This document shows positions 48,983-60,545 of a stretch of DNA of 64,000 nucleotides, piece by piece (within the stretch, counting starts at the first letter, position 1; the number at the start of each line of letters is the position of its first letter). The notes beneath the pieces were generated by a model that saw only the letters and a program-made list of their open reading frames with translations, was not told where the DNA came from and did no database searches. Source of the stretch: Acidobacteriota bacterium (GTDB lineage Bacteria > Acidobacteriota > CAIWXX01); contig JBFMAF010000043.1 of assembly GCA_040755995.1 (NCBI GenBank), forward strand, positions 96,001 through 160,000. Direction: 5' to 3'. The position numbers and the translations under genes are program-made.

Positions 48983-51553
48983 ATGAGGTCGGCGCGAGCC
49001 GCGAGCATTGTCGCTGGGCTGCAGCTATTCTTGCCGATGGCCGTCGCAGCAGTTGACGCTTCCCGGTCCGAAATCGAGGCGTGCCTGATCTGTCATTCTG
49101 ACAGCGGATTGACCAGGGCCGGCGGCGAGAAGCTTCTCGTACCGGACGCGCTCGCGACCAGCGTTCACGCGGCGCTCTCCTGCGTCGACTGCCATGCCGA
49201 AGGGAATTTCGACGACGTGCCGCACGCGCCGAAGTACACGCCGGTTGACTGCGCCGGCTGCCACGCGGAGGTGGCGGAGCAGTGGAGCGGAAGCGTACAC
49301 GGCAGGGGCCCGCCCGCCAAGCGGATCGGCTGCGTTCAATGCCACGAGTCCGGAGACGATCCGCACGATGTGAGGCCCGCGGCTGGATTGGACCCGGCTC
49401 GGGTCTGCGTGAGGTGTCACCCGGAGGAGACTCAGCGCTTCGCATCCGGCGGGCATGCAAAGGCGATCTCGGCCATGTCGCCGCCGGGCTGCGCCGGGTG
49501 CCATCGCCCTCACGCTGAAGCGAGCCTCTCGAATGCGGGCTCCACGCGGGTCTGTGAGCCGTGCCACGCGTCGGCTGCCGAGAAGCTCCGAGGCGGGCCG
49601 CACGGCCTCAAGGAGGCCATTCCGCAGCGGACAAAGGATGCCCCGAAGGAGCAGGTCGGGTGCTCGAGCTGCCACGAGCCCCACGCTATGCCGGATCCTG
49701 TGCGATCGTCCGATGCGTTCTCGCAATGCGTATCATGCCACAGGAAGTCCGTTGTCGATTTCGCCGGCTCGGTGCACGAAGCGAGGCTGCGGGGCGGCGA
49801 GATGACGTGCGCAAGCTGCCATTCGATCCACCTCGAGCCCGGGCAGGTGGCGTTCCACTGCGGCGACTGCCACGAGAAGGCCAACGAGGAATATCGTCAG
49901 AGCGCGCACTTCAAGCAGAATCCGACCGGGCTGGGCGCCGCAGCGAATTGCGGCGACTGCCACAACCGTGGCCACCAGGTGCGCAGCGCCGGCGATCCGC
50001 AGGCCATGACGCACTTCGCAAACCAGCCCAAGATGTGCGGGAAGTGCCATGGCGAGAGCCTCGTAGTCGCTCCGAACTACGTGCGGCTTCCGATGACGCT
50101 TTCCAACTACCGGAAGTCGGTGCACTACGAGAGGCTGCTGGAGTGGGAGCAAGACCCGTCCAAACCTCGGGGAGCAGTCTGCACTGATTGCCACGAATCG
50201 CACCTGGTGCGTTCGGCCGGCGATACCGCTAGCGTGTCCAACCGCATGAGAGTCGCGGACACCTGCGGCAAGTGTCACCCGAAGCAGTCCAGGGACTATC
50301 AGACGTCGGTCCACGGGGCGGCTCTCGCCCATGGGCTGACCGATACGCCGGCGTGCCCCGACTGTCACGACTCCCACATGATCCTCTCGCAGTATGATCC
50401 CTTGTCGAGGACATTCGAGCCGAGCGTTTCCGCTGACTGCGGGCAGTGCCACGAAAGCCGCTCCCTGACCGACCGTTTCGGGATCTGGCCTGGCGTCGTC
50501 AAGTCGTACCGCGACAGCTACCATGGGTGGGCGATAGGCAAGCAGACCACGGTGGCCAACTGCACCGACTGCCACACTACCCACAGGATTCGCAGCCATC
50601 TCGATCCCACATCCACTACATACCCGAAAAACGTGGTGCGAACCTGCGGCCGCTGCCACGAGAACTCCAACGAGGAGTTCGCCACGAGCTACACGCACGC
50701 CTCTTTCGGCCAGATCTGGGGGGTTCACGACGTTGTGCGAGTTGTATACATAGTCCTCATAATCGCCGTCTTGACCGGGATGGTCGCGCACAACACGCTT
50801 ATCTTGAGCCACACGATCCGGAAACACTACCTGAGCCACCTCGAAGAAGAGCATGTGCTCAGGATGAACCGCACCGAGGTCTTGCAGCACATCCTGCTGA
50901 TCGTCACGTTCACCGGTCTGGCGGTGACCGGCTTCGCTCTCAGGTTTCCGGAATCATGGTGGGTGAGAGCATTGCGCTGGGCCGGCATGGACGAAGGTGT
51001 GCGTGCCGCTTCGCATCGCGTCTTCGCGGCGCTCCTTGTGGCCGGCACAGTCTGGCACGCGCTCTGGATGGTGCTCAGCCGGCGCGGGCGGGCCAAACTC
51101 GCAGCCTACCTGCCCGCGTGGCAGGATGTCGCCAGCGCACGCGAGACCGTCAGATATTACTTCGGGATGCGCGATGAGAAGCCCGGCTTCGGCGTCTACG
51201 ACTACACGCAGAAGGCCGAGTACTGGGCGCTCGTCTGGGGGACCATCGTGATGGGCCTGACCGGCTTCGTCCTCTGGTTTCCGTCCTTGATGACCTCATG
51301 GTCGCCGGGGTGGACCGTGCGCGTCTCAGAGGTCGTCCATTACTACGAGGCCATTCTGGCCGTGGGCGCGATCCTCGTGTGGCATTTCTTCTTCGTCATC
51401 TACCATCCGAAGGTCTACCCCGTTTCTCTCACGTTCGTGACCGGCCGGATGCCGTTGCACGAGTGGAAGGAGGATCACTCGCTCGCCGATCCGCTTCCGG
51501 ACGGGGATCACGAAGGAGCGTCAGGCGGAGAGACCCGCGGTCGCGATCAGTAG
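48983..51553 (+). CDS. Multiheme cytochrome c (19 CxxCH) fused to FdnI/HydC-type cytochrome b (CbcL-like)
   Basis: 19 CxxCH motifs counted; C-terminal TM domain with QH, HR, QKAEYW, VHYYEA.L, WHF. Confidence 0.88.
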   Translation: MRSARAASIVAGLQLFLPMAVAAVDASRSEIEACLICHSDSGLTRAGGEKLLVPDALATSVHAALSCVDCHAEGNFDDVPHAPKYTPVDCAGCHAEVAEQWSGSVHGRGPPAKRIGCVQCHESGDDPHDVRPAAGLDPARVCVRCHPEETQRFASGGHAKAISAMSPPGCAGCHRPHAEASLSNAGSTRVCEPCHASAAEKLRGGPHGLKEAIPQRTKDAPKEQVGCSSCHEPHAMPDPVRSSDAFSQCVSCHRKSVVDFAGSVHEARLRGGEMTCASCHSIHLEPGQVAFHCGDCHEKANEEYRQSAHFKQNPTGLGAAANCGDCHNRGHQVRSAGDPQAMTHFANQPKMCGKCHGESLVVAPNYVRLPMTLSNYRKSVHYERLLEWEQDPSKPRGAVCTDCHESHLVRSAGDTASVSNRMRVADTCGKCHPKQSRDYQTSVHGAALAHGLTDTPACPDCHDSHMILSQYDPLSRTFEPSVSADCGQCHESRSLTDRFGIWPGVVKSYRDSYHGWAIGKQTTVANCTDCHTTHRIRSHLDPTSTTYPKNVVRTCGRCHENSNEEFATSYTHASFGQIWGVHDVVRVVYIVLIIAVLTGMVAHNTLILSHTIRKHYLSHLEEEHVLRMNRTEVLQHILLIVTFTGLAVTGFALRFPESWWVRALRWAGMDEGVRAASHRVFAALLVAGTVWHALWMVLSRRGRAKLAAYLPAWQDVASARETVRYYFGMRDEKPGFGVYDYTQKAEYWALVWGTIVMGLTGFVLWFPSLMTSWSPGWTVRVSEVVHYYEAILAVGAILVWHFFFVIYHPKVYPVSLTFVTGRMPLHEWKEDHSLADPLPDGDHEGASGGETRGRDQ

Positions 51554-53017: not shown

Positions 53018-54331
53018 CTACCGCTCCACCGTCAGCTCGGCGATAGTGTCCGGGCTCTCACTCTTTACTACAGTTGTAGTAGCGCCGTCCTTGACGATGC
53101 GAATCCGAACGGCGTCAGTGTCCCGGCCGTCCAGCATCGCGCCGTGGGCTGCGAGGTTGCCGCCGCAGCGCATCCGCCAGGCGTCGCAGAATTCGGCGGC
53201 GTCGGCGGTCCTGTCCCAGGCCTGTTTCCAGACGAGCGTGCGCCGCCCGCTCGAGTCGCGATACATCTGGTAGAAATCGCCGTCCCAGCCGGCAGAGGCG
53301 ACTCCATCCTGGTCGGCGGGGAACAGAGACCGCATGTAGAACTCGCCCAGCACGCCCTCGAACACCAGCGTCTGCCCGGGCAACCGGCTCGACAAATTGA
53401 AGTGCACGTCCTGCGGGTCGTCGCGCCCGAAGTACTTGTCCGGATGCAGCAGCTGCTCGCTGGTGGCCGGGGGCCGGGCGAGCACCCGGTTGACCTCAGA
53501 CTGGCCGCCGCGGTTGTAGGCCGCCTCGATGAATCTGTCGCCCTCGATGTAGGGCAGCAGCAGCTGCCGCTGGATCACCTCGGGGGCGGCGGCATACCTG
53601 CCGCCCGTGAGGGTGGCTGCCGACTGGATCATCGCGCCCAGATCCAGCGGAATGCCGCCCAGCAGCTCGCCCACATCGTCACCAAGCTCCGTATTCTGCG
53701 CTCCGAGGGAATCGACGCCTGCGAACCGGAGCATGACGAAAGTAGCGTCGCCCTCGTAGGCGCCGAGCGCCGCGAGGCGACGGTCGTCGAAGTCGCTGAG
53801 GTCGGGCAGCTTGTGCTCCAGGTCGAAATGCTGGTCCTGGATGGCGTGGCGGATCTCGTGCGACAGGATGAAGGCGTTGAGGAAGTCTAGCTGCGATGAG
53901 CTGCTGACAGCGTACAGCGATTTCGAAGGACTCCTTTCGTCATAGAATCCGGCGACGTTCTCGTACAGCAGCTGGGCCCGCTCGGCCCGCAGGTCGTAGT
54001 CTGCGGGGATGAGTCCCAGGAACTTCAGCAGCTCCGATTCGCCCACCGCCTCGGAGGCCGGGTACTCGTCGTCGAACACCTGTTCGAGATACTGCTTGAG
54101 CTGCTCCTTGGTCATGAAGCGGATCTGGAGAGGCCGTATGAGCTTCAGGCCGCCGATTTCTTCGACGCGGGCTTTGAGCGCGTCCTCCGTCATAGTCTCC
54201 TGGACGCCCAGCATGTCGAGGAGCCCGCGGATCTGTTCTTCCGCCGTCTCCTCCTGCGCGTTCAGGACGATCATGCCGAGACACACAACCGCCAAAGCGG
54301 CTCCGATCGCGCTCGCAAACGCTCTTCTCAC
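53018..54331 (-). CDS. Exported HExxH zinc-metallopeptidase-like protein
   Basis: Signal peptide; AGFYD, HEIRHAIQDQHF, EGDA, PY..G, P.TSEQ.LHP.KY, GWDGD. Confidence 0.7.
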   Translation of the reverse strand: MRRAFASAIGAALAVVCLGMIVLNAQEETAEEQIRGLLDMLGVQETMTEDALKARVEEIGGLKLIRPLQIRFMTKEQLKQYLEQVFDDEYPASEAVGESELLKFLGLIPADYDLRAERAQLLYENVAGFYDERSPSKSLYAVSSSSQLDFLNAFILSHEIRHAIQDQHFDLEHKLPDLSDFDDRRLAALGAYEGDATFVMLRFAGVDSLGAQNTELGDDVGELLGGIPLDLGAMIQSAATLTGGRYAAAPEVIQRQLLLPYIEGDRFIEAAYNRGGQSEVNRVLARPPATSEQLLHPDKYFGRDDPQDVHFNLSSRLPGQTLVFEGVLGEFYMRSLFPADQDGVASAGWDGDFYQMYRDSSGRRTLVWKQAWDRTADAAEFCDAWRMRCGGNLAAHGAMLDGRDTDAVRIRIVKDGATTTVVKSESPDTIAELTVER

Positions 54332-54432
54332 GCGCTGATTATAGGGGCGCGTCGAGGGGTTGTCAAAAACGCCGTTGGAATCGGGTGGGAAACCAATTCG
54401 GGGGGCGGCCGATCGCGCGACTCGCAGCCAAG

Positions 54433-54492
54433 CCCCTTCCCGCACCCGCCTGCGGTTTCGCTTCGGGTACGCGAGCGGGTGCGGGGACGGGG
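54433..54492. repeat. Inverted hexamer-like repeats forming a hairpin
   Basis: CCCCTTCCCGCACCCGC ... GCGGGTGCGGGGACGGGG. Confidence 0.55.
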
Positions 54493-54512: not shown

Positions 54513-55925
54513 CTACCTGAACCGATAGATGGTCCGCACGTAGAAGGTGCGGTAGTCGTTCCCCTCGCCTCGAGCCTGCTGCAGCTCAGCTATCAACGTC
54601 AGTGCGCCTGCGAGCCTGTACGAAAGAGACGCTCCGATGATCTGGTAGCCGGGAACGGGCGTCAACTGCAGGCTGGTACCGATTTCGGTGATCACGATAG
54701 CGTCGCCGTAGTTGGAGTAGTCGACCTCGGCTGTGAAGTCGCCGATGGATCGCGCACAGGACAGGTATACGACTCCACGCCCTGCCGAGGCTTCGAGCGA
54801 ACGCGCGTAGGAGCCGTTGATGTCGAAGCCGGCGAGCTCCACTCCTGAGATCCCGATTCTCACCTGGCGCGTCAGTTGATCGCTCTGGCTCCTCTTGAAG
54901 ACGCTCATTCCGCCGTAGACCCTCATGCTCCGGTACAGACGATACCGGACGTCAAACATGAAGTTCTGGTAGTAGTAGTTGCCGATCACGTACGGATCCG
55001 TGATCAAGCCGCCGTCGGAAGCCGCGATCAGGAGTCTTCTATAGTCGATCGAGCGCCCAAAGCTGAATGAGCCGGAGAACGACAGGTCCTTGTTCACGGC
55101 GACTCCTCCTGAGGCCAGGAAGCGCGAGAGCCGGTTCGCGCCGGGGATGCCCGGGCCGAGCTCGTACTCCAGGCTCTGGTACAGCGAGGTCCCGGGCCTG
55201 GCGTAGATGAAGTTCTGCACCGAGAGGAATCGTCGTTCCGTCTTTCCGCGGAGGAGGACCTCGGTGAGAGCCACATCGGATCTCGATCCCCCCGCCGACT
55301 GGAGAGTCACGTAGCCGCCCGCCGTGACTGTGTCCGAGGAGAAGGCCGCCGTGTAGAAGTCCGGGACGACCCCGCCGTATCCGCCCAAGGAGAGGGATCC
55401 GTGACGGTAGCCGGCGCGGACGCCGTCGATGGTTCCTATACTACCGACGTCGTAAATTGACATCCGTCCCGCAGACACCTCGTATGAAGTGGCGCGGTAC
55501 GTGGCCTTCGCGTCGTAGATGAAGAGGGTCGAAGGGTGATTCCCGGCGACGTAGTGACGGTTGCGGAGATTCAGGTCGAAGGACCACCCCGACTGGCCCT
55601 TCGGGCGGAAGGTGGTCGTGATCTGGTAGCCGAGGGTTGTCACCGGGTCCTGACCCGGTACGGCCAGTGCATAGGCATCCGTCGAGAACCAACCCGTGAG
55701 CGCCGGGGTTGGGCGCGCGGCCGGCAACTCCTGTCCGCCCGCGGCGCACGAACCTGCCAGCAGCGCAGCCCCGATCGCTGCCAGCACGGAATTCACAACG
55801 AACCGGTCGTAGAGGCGGTGGGGAGCTCCTCCAGGCGACCCGGCTGCCGTACTGCTCGCCTGTCCTCGGTTTGCGGTTGAACGTGCCGGCGGCCGTACCA
55901 CCAGCCGTCTACCGATGCGCTTCAT
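54513..55925 (-). CDS. Hypothetical outer-membrane beta-barrel protein
   Basis: Alternating aromatic/hydrophobic strands, AGR....G...IDG, C-terminal ...RTIYRFR; GGGAGG RBS before ATG 55925 (start uncertain). Confidence 0.65.
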   Translation of the reverse strand: MKRIGRRLVVRPPARSTANRGQASSTAAGSPGGAPHRLYDRFVVNSVLAAIGAALLAGSCAAGGQELPAARPTPALTGWFSTDAYALAVPGQDPVTTLGYQITTTFRPKGQSGWSFDLNLRNRHYVAGNHPSTLFIYDAKATYRATSYEVSAGRMSIYDVGSIGTIDGVRAGYRHGSLSLGGYGGVVPDFYTAAFSSDTVTAGGYVTLQSAGGSRSDVALTEVLLRGKTERRFLSVQNFIYARPGTSLYQSLEYELGPGIPGANRLSRFLASGGVAVNKDLSFSGSFSFGRSIDYRRLLIAASDGGLITDPYVIGNYYYQNFMFDVRYRLYRSMRVYGGMSVFKRSQSDQLTRQVRIGISGVELAGFDINGSYARSLEASAGRGVVYLSCARSIGDFTAEVDYSNYGDAIVITEIGTSLQLTPVPGYQIIGASLSYRLAGALTLIAELQQARGEGNDYRTFYVRTIYRFR

Positions 55926-56185
55926 CGTGCTTGCCTCCCTTCGGTCACCTGCGGTACCAGTCAGATAACCGGCATAGAATGCCTGCCATGTGAACCGAAC
56001 CCCGGCGACCACACCGCGACTCGCAGCTCCAGGGGAAAGTCGCGTCCGCGGGCGCCCGTCGGACAGCGCGCCCACCAGCACGCTCAGTTCGTCACGACGG
56101 CACCACGTGCGATCGGCTGAGCCACTTTCATCATGAATCCCGGCGCGTTGATACTCGCAGTGCTCGAATCCGTTCTGCCCACGCG

Positions 56186-56215
56186 AAATTACCCGCGGCA
56201 CTCGAAGCTTGTCAA
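56186..56215 (-). promoter_or_regulatory. Putative sigma70 promoter of the beta-barrel gene
   Basis: Minus strand TTGACA-N18-TAATTT. Confidence 0.5.
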
Positions 56216-56239
56216 CACGATTTCCAGTAGGGATTGGCA

Positions 56240-56261
56240 GCGTGTGATCTACGTCACACGC
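56240..56261. promoter_or_regulatory. CRP/FNR-family binding site
   Basis: GCG-TGTGA-TCTACG-TCACA-CGC: exact TGTGA-N6-TCACA within 8-bp inverted arms. Confidence 0.7.
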
Positions 56262-56390
56262 TCCGGTGCCGCGGTCTTGGTCGCAAGCTCTGGCGCGATG
56301 CGTCATCGCCACACTCAGCGGGGGCGCAGGAAGTGACGCAGAGACGCGGCGAGGGGTGCAGTCACGTTCCACGCGTCTCGCGCCACACCA

Positions 56391-56419
56391 TTGAGATTCC
56401 GGTGCCGACCCGCTATGCT
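56391..56419 (+). promoter_or_regulatory. Putative sigma70 promoter of the small UGA-containing gene
   Basis: TTGAGA-N17-TATGCT. Confidence 0.55.
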
Positions 56420-56456
56420 CATTGTGGTTATGGACATCATGCGAAAGGTCCGTGAG

Positions 56457-56627
56457 ATGCATACACAGGATTGGATATTGCTGGGGGTCCTCGCACTCTA
56501 TCTTGTCTTGCAGTTCTACGTGTTTCCGAAGCTCGGCGTACCCACCTGAGGGTCCCGGGTATGCAAGACCGAGGATCGGTCGAAATCCGGCACGACACTG
56601 AAGCTCTTCGACGACGAGAAGCACTGA
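56457..56627 (+). CDS. Candidate small single-TM selenoprotein (Sec at UGA 56547-56549)
   Basis: MHTQDWILLGVLALYLVLQFYVFPKLGVPT-U-GSRVCKTEDRSKSGTTLKLFDDEKH; SECIS-like hairpin follows the UGA. Confidence 0.65.
56555..56590 (+). promoter_or_regulatory. Bacterial SECIS-like hairpin
   Basis: Lower stem CCGGGT/ATCCGG; upper stem GACCGA/TCGGTC; GGA apical loop 23 nt after the UGA. Confidence 0.6.
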
Positions 56628-56696
56628 GCCGCCTCCCCTAGCGTCTGCCCCCTTGGCGGCTGCGCAGCGGATCGGACTGCGCACCTTCGCAGGCGG

Positions 56697-56731
56697 AACT
56701 GCCAACTGACAACCGACAACTGCCAACTGCC
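56697..56731. repeat. Heptamer tandem repeat x5 (reverse orientation)
   Basis: AACTGCC AACTGAC AACCGAC AACTGCC AACTGCC. Confidence 0.88.
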
Positions 56732-56805
56732 ATCGACTTGAAGCCTCCTCTGCACTGGGCATAGAATGGGCGCCTTCGCCCCGAGGGCGCAGTATGGAGG
56801 GAGAC

Positions 56806-58197
56806 ATGGTTTATATCCCCTGGATCATCGCGGTCTTGGTTGTCGTCGTCATAGTTCTTCTCTGGGCCAAGAATTACCACAAGGTGGGGCCCAACCAGGT
56901 GCTGGTCATCGTGGGCCGTACCAGCACGATCATCGACAAGGACGGGCGCGGAAAGAAGGTGGGCTACCGCCTCCAGGTAGGCGGCGGAACGTTCGTCTGG
57001 CCGATGCTGGAGAGCGCCGAGGTGTTCCCGCTCGAGGTCCAGTCGATTGCGCTTCGCTGCCCCGAGGTGCTCACGAGACAGGGTGTCGTCATTTCCGCCG
57101 AGGCGCAGGGACAGGTGAAGGCTGCCAGCGACGAGCCGCTGCTCCATCGCGCCGTCGAGAATTTTCTTTCGAAAGGAACCTCCGGAATCTCGTACGTGGC
57201 ACAGGAGGTCCTCGAGGGGCACATGCGCGGCATGTTCGGAACGATGACGGTCGAGGAGATCTACTCGCAGCGCGAGGAATTCGCGCGGCGCCTGCGCGAA
57301 GAGGTGGCGGCCGATTTCTCGCGGCTCGGCCTGGAGGTTGTCTCGTTCTCGCTCAAGGACATCTCTGATGCACAGGGGTACATCCAGTCGCTCGGCGCGG
57401 GCCGAATCGCCGAGGTCAAGCGCGACGCCGCAATCGCGCAGGCCGATGCCGAGCGTGATTCGGCCATCCACGCGGCACAGTCGCGGAAGGACGGCGATGT
57501 TGCGCGGTTGAAGGCGGAGGCCGAGCTGGCCGAGGCCACTCGCGATTTCGAGTCGCAACGCGCGGACTACCAGGGGGTCGTGAACGTGAAACGGGCGCAG
57601 GCGGATGCCGCGTACGAGCTCGAGCGGTCGCGACTTGCGATGGACATCAAGCAGCAGGACTACCAGGTGAAGCTGGCCGAGAAGGAGCTCGCGCGGCAGG
57701 TGGAGGAGAAGGAGGTCGCGCGGCGCGAGAAGGAGCTCGAGGCCACCGTGAAGGTGCCCGCGCAGGCAATGCAGTTCCAGGCGAGGATCGAGGCCGAGAC
57801 CGAGGCGTATCGCAAGGAGCTGGACGCCAAGGGCAAGGCAGCGGGCGTCAGGCTCGACGGCACGGCCCAGGCCGAAGCCATCACCGCCAGGGGCCAGGCC
57901 GAAGCCTCAGCCATGCGTGAAAAAGCCACCGCCTGGAAGGAATACACCGACGCAGCGCTCGCCGAGATGGTAATCAAATCTCTTCCTGACCTGGCTCGGG
58001 CCGTCTCCGAGCCGCTCTCCAAGGTCGACAAGATCGTCATGGTAGGGGATGCCGAGGGAGTCCAGAAGGTGACCGGGCAGGTCGCTGCGGTGCTCGCGCA
58101 GCTCCCACCCACGATCGAGAGCCTCACCGGACTCAGACTGCAGGATCTGCTCGGCCGCCTGAAGAAAAGCAAGGAGAGCCCTGATGAGAAGAAGTAG
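56806..58197 (+). CDS. Flotillin/SPFH domain protein
   Basis: N-terminal TM, GGGTFVWP, LEGHMR, KDISD..GY, AEA-rich coiled coil, PLSKVDKI. Confidence 0.92.
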   Translation: MVYIPWIIAVLVVVVIVLLWAKNYHKVGPNQVLVIVGRTSTIIDKDGRGKKVGYRLQVGGGTFVWPMLESAEVFPLEVQSIALRCPEVLTRQGVVISAEAQGQVKAASDEPLLHRAVENFLSKGTSGISYVAQEVLEGHMRGMFGTMTVEEIYSQREEFARRLREEVAADFSRLGLEVVSFSLKDISDAQGYIQSLGAGRIAEVKRDAAIAQADAERDSAIHAAQSRKDGDVARLKAEAELAEATRDFESQRADYQGVVNVKRAQADAAYELERSRLAMDIKQQDYQVKLAEKELARQVEEKEVARREKELEATVKVPAQAMQFQARIEAETEAYRKELDAKGKAAGVRLDGTAQAEAITARGQAEASAMREKATAWKEYTDAALAEMVIKSLPDLARAVSEPLSKVDKIVMVGDAEGVQKVTGQVAAVLAQLPPTIESLTGLRLQDLLGRLKKSKESPDEKK

Positions 58198-58214: not shown

Positions 58215-60545
58215 ATGCTGTCTGACCGGGCGAACCGCATCGCGCTTTCTCCGACCCTCCGCGTGAGCGCGCGCGCTCAGCAGATGCGCGCTCAGGGGAT
58301 CGACGTCGTGGATCTTTCTGCCGGCGAGCCGGATTTCCCCACACCGGAAATCATCAAGCGGGCGGCAAAGGCGGCCATCGATGCCAATTTCACAAAATAC
58401 GTCGCAAACGATGGCATCCCGGAGCTCAAGCAGGCGATCAAGGAGAAGTTGCAGCGCGAGAACAATCTGACCTACTCGCCCGACGAGATCATCGTCTCGT
58501 GCGGGGCGAAGAATTCGCTCTACAACATTGCGATGGCGCTGTTCGGTCCTGGCGACGATGTGCTGGTTCCTTCGCCCTGCTGGGTGTCCTACCCCGACCA
58601 GGTGCGTCTCGCCGGAGCGAACCCGGTCTTCATTCCGACATACGAAGAGAACGGCTTTCGCCTCCAGGCCAAGGACCTGCTCGCTTCGATCACGCCGAAC
58701 ACCAAGGCGCTGGTCCTGAACTACCCGTGCAATCCGACGGGGGCGGCGTACTCGCGGGACGAGCTGGAAGCCATCGCGGATGTGTGCGTGCGCGAGGAGA
58801 TCTTCGTCGTCGCGGATGAGATCTACGAGAAGCTGATTTACGACGGAGCTCGTTTTGTCTCGATCGGATCCCTGAACGAGAAGATCAAGAAGCTCACCCT
58901 TACGGTGAACGGTTTCTCCAAGGCGTTTTCGATGACGGGTTGGCGGCTCGGTTATGCGGCCGGCCCCAAGGAGATCATCGCAGCCTGCTCGAAGATCCAG
59001 TCTCACAACACCTCGAACGCGACCTCCTTCGTCCAGAAGGCCGCCGTCGACGGGCTACGGTCCTGCGCGATGGAGATCGAACGGATGCGGCAGGAGTTCG
59101 AACGGCGCCGCAATTTCGTCGTCTACAAGCTGAGGGCGATCCCAGGGGTCTCGTGCTATTCGCCGCAGGGGGCTTTCTATGCGCTCCCAAACATTGGGCG
59201 CTACCTGAGATGCGAGTTCGAGGGCGCGCCGATCCGCAACACCTACGGCCTCGCCTACTACCTGCTGAAGGATGCCCACGTCGCCCTGATCGCAGGCGAG
59301 GCGTTCGACGCCAGCGAGCACATCCGGCTGTCGTTCGCAACCTCCATGCAGCGTCTCGAAGAGGGCATGCGCCGGATCGCTCAGGCGCTGGCGCGCCTCG
59401 AGGAACCGAGGCGCCTGAGGCCCCGGGCGCTCAACAACGTCGTCACCAAAATCAACGACTACGTCCCGACCCGCCCGGTCGGGTCGCTGGTGGAACGGAA
59501 TGCGCTGCTGGCCGAGGCCGAAGCACATCTGCCCGCCGACAGCTACTTCGAGTGGAACGCGGCCGTCGCGGGAGCCATCATCCAGCTCCGCACAAGCTCC
59601 CCTCATCTCGCGGACTTCTACCAGGAGAACTTCTACCCGGCTACACTGGAGGGAGACCTGGAGCCCCACGCCGTGATCTACGGAATCAAGGACGTGGCCG
59701 GCAGGGAGCCGCAGGCGTTCCTGAGCCGCGACACGGCGACGGCGGTCGTGTTCAACACGGCCTACTACGGCCAGGTCAGGTCGTTGGCCCTCTGCCTGGC
59801 CGCCGAAGCGTCGCTGCGCACTTCCGGCGCATTCCTCGCTCACTGCGCGGCGCTCGACAAGGACGCCCGCGGCGTGCTCGTGTGGGGCGGGCCCGGCTCG
59901 GGCCGGACCGCCGTGCTTGCCGCCGCGTTGCGCGAGCCGGGTGTCCGACTGGTGGCCGGCGACTCCGTGCTCATGAGGCTCTCCGGCGGAGAACCGGTGG
60001 CCGATCTGGTCGAGCGGAAGCTATACGTGAAGGCGAAGTGGGCGAAGCACCTGCCCGAGATCGAGAAGCTCGTCGATCGCTGCAAGCTCGAAAACCTCGT
60101 GACCAGCCGGGAGCAGTGTGCCGTCGAGTACTGCCCCGAAGGGGACAACTGCGTGCTGGACCGGGGTGCGCCTGCGTGCTCGATCGCGTCCACCCGCGGC
60201 CGCATCATGTTGGACCCGTATTGGCTTGGCGGCGCACAGAGACACGCCCGCCGGACCGTCGCACGGGCCTGCGTATTCGTCTGCAAGGACCCCATACAGC
60301 CGCCGGTGAAGGAGATAGGAGCGAATGAGGCCAGCCGATGGATGGTGGGGGGACAGCTGCCCGGCAGCACGGGGCGCTCGGTACTGTTCATGAATCCACA
60401 TGTCGAAGGAATGGACAGCGCGCGAAACGAATTGCTGCGACAACTGCACGAGCGGCTTTTCAGCCAGACACGTTGTGTGCTTATCAATACGGCCATGGGT
60501 ACGCCCGAATCGGTGGCGAGGCGGCTCCTGGAGACGTTGAAGTAG
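58215..60545 (+). CDS. Class I (aspartate-type) aminotransferase fused to a PEPCK/HprK-like P-loop domain
   Basis: GEPDF, PCNPTG, DEIY, NGFSKAFSMTGWRLGY, IRLSFA; about 375 further aa containing HCAALD, GGPGSGRT, LVAGD, MNPH. Confidence 0.85.
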   Translation: MLSDRANRIALSPTLRVSARAQQMRAQGIDVVDLSAGEPDFPTPEIIKRAAKAAIDANFTKYVANDGIPELKQAIKEKLQRENNLTYSPDEIIVSCGAKNSLYNIAMALFGPGDDVLVPSPCWVSYPDQVRLAGANPVFIPTYEENGFRLQAKDLLASITPNTKALVLNYPCNPTGAAYSRDELEAIADVCVREEIFVVADEIYEKLIYDGARFVSIGSLNEKIKKLTLTVNGFSKAFSMTGWRLGYAAGPKEIIAACSKIQSHNTSNATSFVQKAAVDGLRSCAMEIERMRQEFERRRNFVVYKLRAIPGVSCYSPQGAFYALPNIGRYLRCEFEGAPIRNTYGLAYYLLKDAHVALIAGEAFDASEHIRLSFATSMQRLEEGMRRIAQALARLEEPRRLRPRALNNVVTKINDYVPTRPVGSLVERNALLAEAEAHLPADSYFEWNAAVAGAIIQLRTSSPHLADFYQENFYPATLEGDLEPHAVIYGIKDVAGREPQAFLSRDTATAVVFNTAYYGQVRSLALCLAAEASLRTSGAFLAHCAALDKDARGVLVWGGPGSGRTAVLAAALREPGVRLVAGDSVLMRLSGGEPVADLVERKLYVKAKWAKHLPEIEKLVDRCKLENLVTSREQCAVEYCPEGDNCVLDRGAPACSIASTRGRIMLDPYWLGGAQRHARRTVARACVFVCKDPIQPPVKEIGANEASRWMVGGQLPGSTGRSVLFMNPHVEGMDSARNELLRQLHERLFSQTRCVLINTAMGTPESVARRLLETLK

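Follow-up and report, generated by a model that had tools for sequence, protein, structure and literature searches.

A gene for a 56-residue membrane protein with a predicted selenocysteine at residue 31 was found at 56457..56627 on the forward strand of the window (the whole 64,000-nucleotide stretch of an Acidobacteriota contig that was analysed), and its homologues form a family that appears to be uncatalogued. The hairpin following the in-frame TGA is, by comparative criteria, a bacterial SECIS element, and the comparison of homologues makes it very likely that SelB reads it and inserts selenocysteine at the UGA. For the protein, a role as a membrane-tethered selenol/thiol relay for sulfane sulfur is proposed from gene order, and we give this role about an even chance.

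The features of the locus are as follows.

56391..56419, forward strand: promoter-like site, sigma70-type, TTGAGA-N17-TATGCT (9/12 matches)
56443..56448, forward strand: likely ribosome-binding site GAAAGG, 8 nt 5' of ATG 56457 (from the sequence)
56457..56627, forward strand: small membrane-protein gene, 56 aa, predicted Sec at residue 31 (from the sequence and homologues)
56472..56522, forward strand: hydrophobic segment, approximately residues 6-22, predicted transmembrane (from the sequence)
56547..56549, forward strand: in-frame TGA, codon 31, predicted selenocysteine, after the conserved P-x-x-G-x-x-T (from the homologue column)
56562..56564, forward strand: Cys36, the +5 partner in the U-x4-C motif (from conservation)
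56567..56581, forward strand: bacterial SECIS-type hairpin of 6 bp, GACCGA-GGA-TCGGTC, with the GGA loop 23 nt after the UGA (from covariation)

The gene and its in-frame TGA codon

Three ATG codons (56430, 56439 and 56457) are candidate starts for the small gene, whose terminal stop is the TGA at 56625-56627. The start is very likely ATG 56457, giving 56 rather than 65 amino acids, because homologues mostly begin 28-31 codons 5' of the in-frame TGA and a purine-rich site of the GAAAGG type is kept in the same-family loci (GAAAGG in L005, GGAAGG in L006). The -35- and -10-like hexamers with their 17-nt spacer were likewise in register in both same-family genomes despite a different upstream gene, which in L006 encodes an MgsA-type ATPase. 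Together with the purine-rich site, this points to the 56-residue form and to a probable separate transcript. Promoter-like sites of that grade numbered 2 in 1 kb, compared with 0.3 expected.

The product would run from a short acidic N-terminus through the hydrophobic stretch and P-K-L-G-V-P-T to U31, the Cys at +5 and a charged tail. The initial annotation had described an ORF with one transmembrane helix, an in-frame TGA at 56547 followed by 25 sense codons including a Cys at +5, and an upstream TTGAGA-N17-TATGCT promoter. All of these elements were found again, the helix as a single hydrophobic stretch. Of the two lengths it had allowed, 56 aa agreed with the homologues, and the 65-aa form starting at the upstream ATGs did not. 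The open frame beyond the TGA is weak evidence alone, because such frames are common by chance in this genome, where at least 15 open codons follow 73% of 2078 ordinary TGA stops.

The small gene lies between a divergent 471-aa gene without a Pfam match and a flotillin gene. Co-transcription with the latter was considered doubtful, given a second promoter-like site at 56738-56767 and other downstream genes in the same-family relatives. Several further elements were recorded in this intergenic space: a perfect palindrome TGTGA-N6-TCACA at 56243-56258, which we take to be a CRP-type site, some 130 nt before the promoter-like site of the small gene and some 315 nt away from the divergent one (the genome contains 23 perfect sites of this kind); a hairpin at 56333-56387, just 5' of the promoter-like site (z -2.5, 3/200 shuffles as stable); and, at 56696-56730, a short intergenic repeat on the word AACTGCCAACTG, with 27 copies of the word in the genome. 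Elsewhere in the window, 58215-60545 (forward strand) encodes a 776-aa protein with an aspartate aminotransferase-like domain (approximately residues 1-395) and a 380-aa C-terminal part, which has a P-loop-like motif and no match among the 25 families listed. Two ORFs of about 470 aa on the reverse strand, at 54513-55928 (an outer-membrane protein by eye) and 53018-54445, had no Pfam match, and 48983-51553 (forward strand) encodes an 856-aa protein in which a multiheme cytochrome c is joined to a cytochrome b561-like membrane domain.

A search with the single protein gave matches in 21 of 61 related genomes. A family profile built from 18 homologues and run on 401 genomes of the phylum Acidobacteriota (one of them, the unpublished G025, counted in these tallies only) matched 115 places in 113 genomes. 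Five matches from a single-protein scan of named genomes fell on the unconserved middle, gave no score with the family profile and were dropped; L018 and L022 from the related-genome search were dropped too.

Column codons were read at 94 of the 115 matched places, yielding TGA in 93, TGT (Cys) in one, and neither TAA nor TAG in any, whereas the terminal stops use all three codons (TGA 52, TAG 26, TAA 15). Among the other 21 places, the search listing shows a TGA inside 20, and a weak second match in G303 has a TAA. Downstream of the column, the +5 Cys was present in 69 of the 93 TGA loci (TGC 49, TGT 20) and in 139 of 147 database representatives, most being Cys forms. It is regarded as a protein constraint, since it is kept in the proteins and both of its codons are used in the TGA forms. 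The expectation that homologues would carry Cys or TGA at this column, with conservation past it, was borne out.

The 24 TGA loci without the +5 Cys include a supported 17-member clade. This clade represents a subtype with mostly U-A-V-P-x-P at this point (L060-L070, L072-L075, L104, L113, L114); in several of its members a Cys lies further on, 9-17 residues downstream. One genome, G055, has the gene twice, as the divergent copies L009 and L077.

An 84-sequence profile matched 248 proteins in the protein databases. Among the 120 matches listed, 63 had Cys at the column, 56 ended exactly before it and one had Glu; the entries ending at the column are mostly 29 residues long, which is the truncation by annotation pipelines that had been predicted. 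Cys homologues in these databases number over 100, the named ones coming from KSB1 and Thermogutta. In a representative library, 2654 clusters matched at E 0.001 or better, and the best 150 of these comprised 123 with Cys (120 by pattern, 3 by eye), 19 with Trp and 8 with Ser, Gly, Arg or Leu. These five other residues, found at the column in 27 of the 147 representatives, were read from protein sequence only; each has a codon one base from TGA, and the Trp entries could also arise from TGA translated under another code. A cluster look-up for the latter case was set aside, as the 30-aa member proved to be a different fragment.

A tree built on 42 columns from 134 sequences, 83 with Sec and 51 with Cys, showed the two forms intermixed, with 16 changes between them. 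Because the supported branches are compatible with one origin, no claim is made about the origin of either form.

The SECIS-type hairpin and selenocysteine machinery

Taken alone, the hairpin was not more stable than chance. For an 81-nt segment, z was -0.75 and 45/200 shuffles were as good; for 31 nt, the energy was -8.2 kcal/mol, with z -1.41 and 15/200 shuffles as good. Its weight therefore comes from conservation and, since the open frame after the TGA is also common, the case for selenocysteine rests on comparison.

Covariation was evaluated in an ungapped alignment of 69 loci, from which near-duplicates were left out, as was the U-AVP subtype because its loop sits roughly 5 nt nearer to the UGA. 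In this alignment both sides vary at 8/8 pairs, and pairing held in 71.7% of cells; the corresponding values were 50.6% after shuffling and 30-51% when the partners were slid. Conservation is confined to the upper stem, below which the two same-family homologues fold differently. Of the two-part hairpin originally described, the 6-bp upper stem with its GGA loop 23 nt after the UGA was thus retained, and the lower stem was not.

According to the available text of PMC13188914, the bSECIS consensus comprises a loop of 3-9 nt, a stem of 4-16 bp, a G in the first two loop positions and a distance of 16-37 nt from the UGA. The window hairpin has this geometry, with a 3-nt GGA loop, 6 bp and 23 nt. 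Relative to a threshold of -7.5 kcal/mol, it yielded -8.2 for 56560-56590 and -6.8 for the bare stem; on the bare stem, 72 of 91 TGA homologues pass. When a stem was counted if it matched the PMC13188914 consensus at -5 kcal/mol or better, the number followed by one was 86 of 91 among TGA forms, 5 of 25 among Cys forms and 127 of 600 among ordinary TGA stops in the source genome. Rfam gave 0 matches within 55900-56900.

The source genome (99.8% complete) contains selA, selB and selD above cut-offs together with tRNA-Sec, in agreement with the machinery that the initial annotation had called for, and its selD itself carries an in-frame TGA. Within the phylum, 295 of 401 genomes gave a selA match, among them 110 of the 113 that carry the small gene. 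Two of the gene-bearing genomes with no selA match (G088 and G217) do have selB and tRNA-Sec. The third, G333 (99% complete), has no Sec machinery above cut-off, and its column codon is TGT (Cys). Among the gene-bearing genomes examined, no TGA form was seen in a genome without Sec genes.

If the UGA were instead a true stop, the product would be a 30-residue peptide and the hairpin a terminator, a stability element or part of a restart at the following ATG. A Met directly follows the TGA in 50 of 93 loci, which suits a restart, but Met +1 is also kept in 120 of the 147 database representatives and therefore argues against stop-and-restart; the full-length Cys homologues share other downstream residues as well. 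The insignificance of the window hairpin on its own is likewise compatible with a stop, as is an internal TAA in G303, a weak second match (E 2.9e-4). Termination is, however, difficult to reconcile with the lack of TAA and TAG at the column in 94 loci, with the loss of the hairpin in Cys forms and with the confinement of the TGA forms seen to genomes with Sec genes, and no U-run was found after the hairpin in the window sequence. A true stop is accordingly considered very improbable, and insertion of selenocysteine is the reading adopted below.

Protein design and comparison with known families

Pro, Gly, Thr and the Sec/Cys residue were invariant in 84/84 members, and the C-terminal tail is unconserved across the family. 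More Lys/Arg residues were present on the C-side of the helix than on its N-side in all 84 of 84 members (mean 3.5 vs 0.2), from which an N-out/C-in orientation is predicted. U31 and C36 would then probably be cytoplasmic and near the membrane, about nine residues past the helix and before the charged tail.

A single 208-aa Cys form (P0204) is fused to a thioredoxin domain, which could be an assembly error. A search for longer or fused forms gave one weak match among 7996 scored, a mis-started truncated form, and this is weak evidence that a common fusion is absent.

The 18 Sec members matched 0 families of NCBIfam (release 20), and the 101 Cys members gave only weak scattered matches there (E 0.025 or worse). 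In Pfam, no family was obtained for the 18 Sec and 101 Cys members (best E 0.0024, unrelated), and PDB sequences gave nothing better than E 0.26. One cluster in the ESM Atlas at 0.87, labelled 'hypothetical protein', with 123 members and commonest in Planctomycetota, was taken as a lead only. In the available text of the 2026 review PMC13188914, the 119-family table contains no entry with a U-x4-C motif behind a single membrane helix, the nearest motif spacing being the UxxxxU of rhodanese-like TsoB. The available portions of deep-Sep (PMC12013277) and BSepDB (PMC13326102) contained nothing on the small family, and a literature search by motif and topic found no paper on it; an entry for the family could exist in Haft and Tolstoy 2025, in Deng et al. 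2026 or in BSepDB Table S2.

With known bSECIS selenoprotein genes the small gene shares the in-frame UGA, the small G-initiated loop, selABCD and the existence of paired Sec and Cys homologues, and it differs in matching no NCBIfam or Pfam model and in its U-x4-C behind a single helix. SELENOK and SELENOS of eukaryotes are also single-pass membrane selenoproteins with a disordered cytoplasmic tail, their Sec lying at the extreme C-terminus and their SECIS in the 3' UTR. In the small protein, by contrast, the Sec adjoins the membrane, and no homology is implied.

A partial likeness was observed to DUF2892 (PF11127), whose C-terminal L-G-[IV]-x-x-C aligns with the L-G-V-x-T-U/C of the small family. 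In hhalign comparisons the probability was 58-67% over 17-19 columns for the DUF2892 subtype found beside the small gene and 2-32% for the canonical subtype. Under this alignment Sec takes the position of a second Cys that is frequent in canonical DUF2892 and mostly absent from the neighbour subtype. In contrast to the small family, with its one helix and no C-P, DUF2892 has two helices and a conserved C-P, and PF11127 itself matched none of the 18 + 101 small-family members. The C-terminal similarity is therefore treated as a possible lead, not as proof of homology.

Gene neighbourhood and proposed function

The neighbourhood survey covered 94 loci from 38 families with flanks of 1.5-3 kb, neighbours being labelled by Pfam and NCBIfam scans of selected proteins and the labels spread by BLAST. 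A core neighbour (DUF2892, DUF302, PG0541-like, rhodanese, TauE, YeeE, SQR or a CoA-disulfide reductase-rhodanese) was present within 1.6 kb in 51 of 94 loci and 24 of 38 families, and none in 43 of 94 loci. DUF2892 (YgaP-TM) was the most frequent neighbour within this distance (29/94 loci, 13/38 families), and in 18 of 94 loci it lay immediately next to the small gene, the stop of one often touching the start of the other; 12 of these 18 cases came from one family. Also within 1.6 kb were RND in 18 loci (12 families), thioredoxin in 17 (4 families; in family f19 its gene lies directly 3' of the small gene), DUF302 in 14 (10 families), SufS in 14 (2 families), PG0541-like in 13 (9 families), ArsR in 8 (7 families), rhodanese in 6 (2 families), TauE in 3, and YeeE, SQR and CoA-disulfide reductase-rhodanese in 2 each. 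DUF2892 and DUF302 recurred at 8 and 9, respectively, of 27 Cys-form metagenome loci.

None of these neighbours was present around the small gene in this window or in its two same-family relatives. The setting between the 471-aa and flotillin genes is uninformative on function. The 7.7-Mb source genome holds only a handful of genes of the neighbour types. An operon of ArsR, OsmC, outer-membrane factor, adaptor, RND, DUF2892 and PG0541-like genes, without the small gene, is located at G000:C11:113935-121011. Because this operon is on another contig and the small gene has its own promoter-like site, any partnership in the source genome would be in trans.

Most PG0541-like proteins have a C-x-x-C near the C-terminus. 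Among selA genomes, 43 of the 51 that have a PG0541-like gene also had the small gene, compared with 67 of the 244 that do not; this test is partly circular, because the PG0541 profile was built from neighbours of the small gene, and it is inflated by kinship, related genomes not being independent. No PG0541-like match was found in 70 of the 113 gene-bearing genomes, and 10 PG0541-like genomes gave no small-gene match. The ArsR neighbours scored far below the BigR cut-off, so sulfide-responsive control by them stays unsupported.

Rhodaneses, SQR, TauE, YeeE, CoA-disulfide reductase-rhodanese fusions and ArsR proteins of the SqrR/BigR type take part in bacterial sulfide and persulfide handling. 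In the available texts, SqrR, BigR and YeeE are placed in this context (PMC9774590), and E. coli YgaP is described as a rhodanese with a two-helix anchor (PMC9774250, PMC4730233) whose gene is derepressed by sulfide through YgaV (PMC9774250). For DUF302, DUF2892 and PG0541, no established function was found in the literature searched, the available part of PMC12094164 listing P. gingivalis PG0538-PG0541 only as a candidate in a heme-homeostasis table.

The proposed selenol/thiol relay is suggested by the recurrence of DUF2892/YgaP, DUF302, rhodanese, TauE, SQR and PG0541 beside the small gene. Such a relay would take up sulfane sulfur, as persulfide or polysulfide, on the membrane's inner face and hand it over to partner proteins to be reduced or exported. 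The U-x4-C pair would cycle between a selenol/thiol, a sulfur-loaded form and a selenenylsulfide. Stand-alone DUF2892 (YgaP-TM), DUF302, rhodanese and the PG0541-type RND pump would be the partners, and thioredoxin or CoA-disulfide reductase would re-reduce the relay. This cycle, its working partners and its route of re-reduction could equally turn out right or wrong. The redox or metal-binding role given in the initial annotation was itself inferential, and the neighbourhood appears to favour sulfur handling over metal binding.

Three other functions were weighed against the relay. The selenoprotein may be an AcrZ-like accessory subunit that tunes the PG0541-type RND pump (or DUF2892), with U-x4-C as a redox switch. 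AcrZ, the accessory protein of E. coli AcrB, shares its size of about 50 residues and its single-helix design according to the available text of PMC7267776. The RND link of the small family comes from gene order, the small gene often being last in RND-DUF2892-PG0541 operons (18/94 loci, 12 families), and the PG0541 co-occurrence and the strictly conserved motif at the helix end, which suggests a binding surface, point the same way. The Sec/Cys pair conserved in the small family distinguishes it from AcrZ. No sequence match to AcrZ was obtained in Pfam or PDB, many loci have DUF302, SufS/thioredoxin or TauE/rhodanese instead, and the gene-bearing genomes without a PG0541-like match also speak against a subunit of this kind, which is considered unlikely.

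A role in binding soft metals or metalloids (Cu, Hg, As, Te) through Sec and Cys, as a chelator or sensor anchored in the membrane that feeds an efflux system, is regarded as distinctly improbable. Sec/Cys pairs do bind soft metals, ArsR/SmtB regulators and RND pumps occur nearby, and some Cys forms have an extra Cys in the tail. But the 97 Pfam-scanned neighbours (of 276 called) included no gene of the Mer, Ars, Cop, P-type ATPase or HMA kinds, the single RND protein scanned fell short of the CusA/CzcA cut-off, and it is sulfur enzymes that recur near the small gene. A general membrane thiol-redox or oxidative-stress protein, one that scavenges peroxide or hypochlorite or shields the thiols of membrane proteins and has no particular connection to sulfane sulfur, is also rather unlikely. 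Its 56 residues with a disordered tail could hardly hold a thioredoxin or peroxiredoxin fold, and it is DUF2892, DUF302 and the RND module, not peroxide enzymes, that occur most often beside the gene. In favour of such a protein, the neighbours also include OsmC, Usp, ECF sigma factors, thioredoxin and cytochrome bd, and in the window's own family the gene is solitary and has a promoter-like site to itself.

A more specific version of the relay can be put forward as speculation, with little expectation that it holds in full: the small selenoprotein would be the missing redox subunit of a DUF2892/PG0541-type RND exporter of sulfane sulfur, sharing ancestry with the C-terminal end of DUF2892 and supplying in trans, as Sec, the second Cys that the neighbour subtype mostly lacks, so that the two proteins form a selenol/thiol gate in the membrane.

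The decoding mechanism itself is textbook, and what stands out is the family, which appears uncatalogued and combines one helix, Sec at the surface of the membrane and U-x4-C, a layout that sets it apart from the listed bacterial selenoproteins. Because its database entries are 29-residue stubs or Cys forms without a name, a curated model is needed. If Sec-decoded, it would be a common selenoprotein in the phylum, present in 110 of the 295 sampled selA-positive genomes. As a 56-residue peptide that is easy to make and test, it offers a handle on its function-unknown partners DUF2892, DUF302 and PG0541 and on the movement of reactive sulfur across bacterial membranes.
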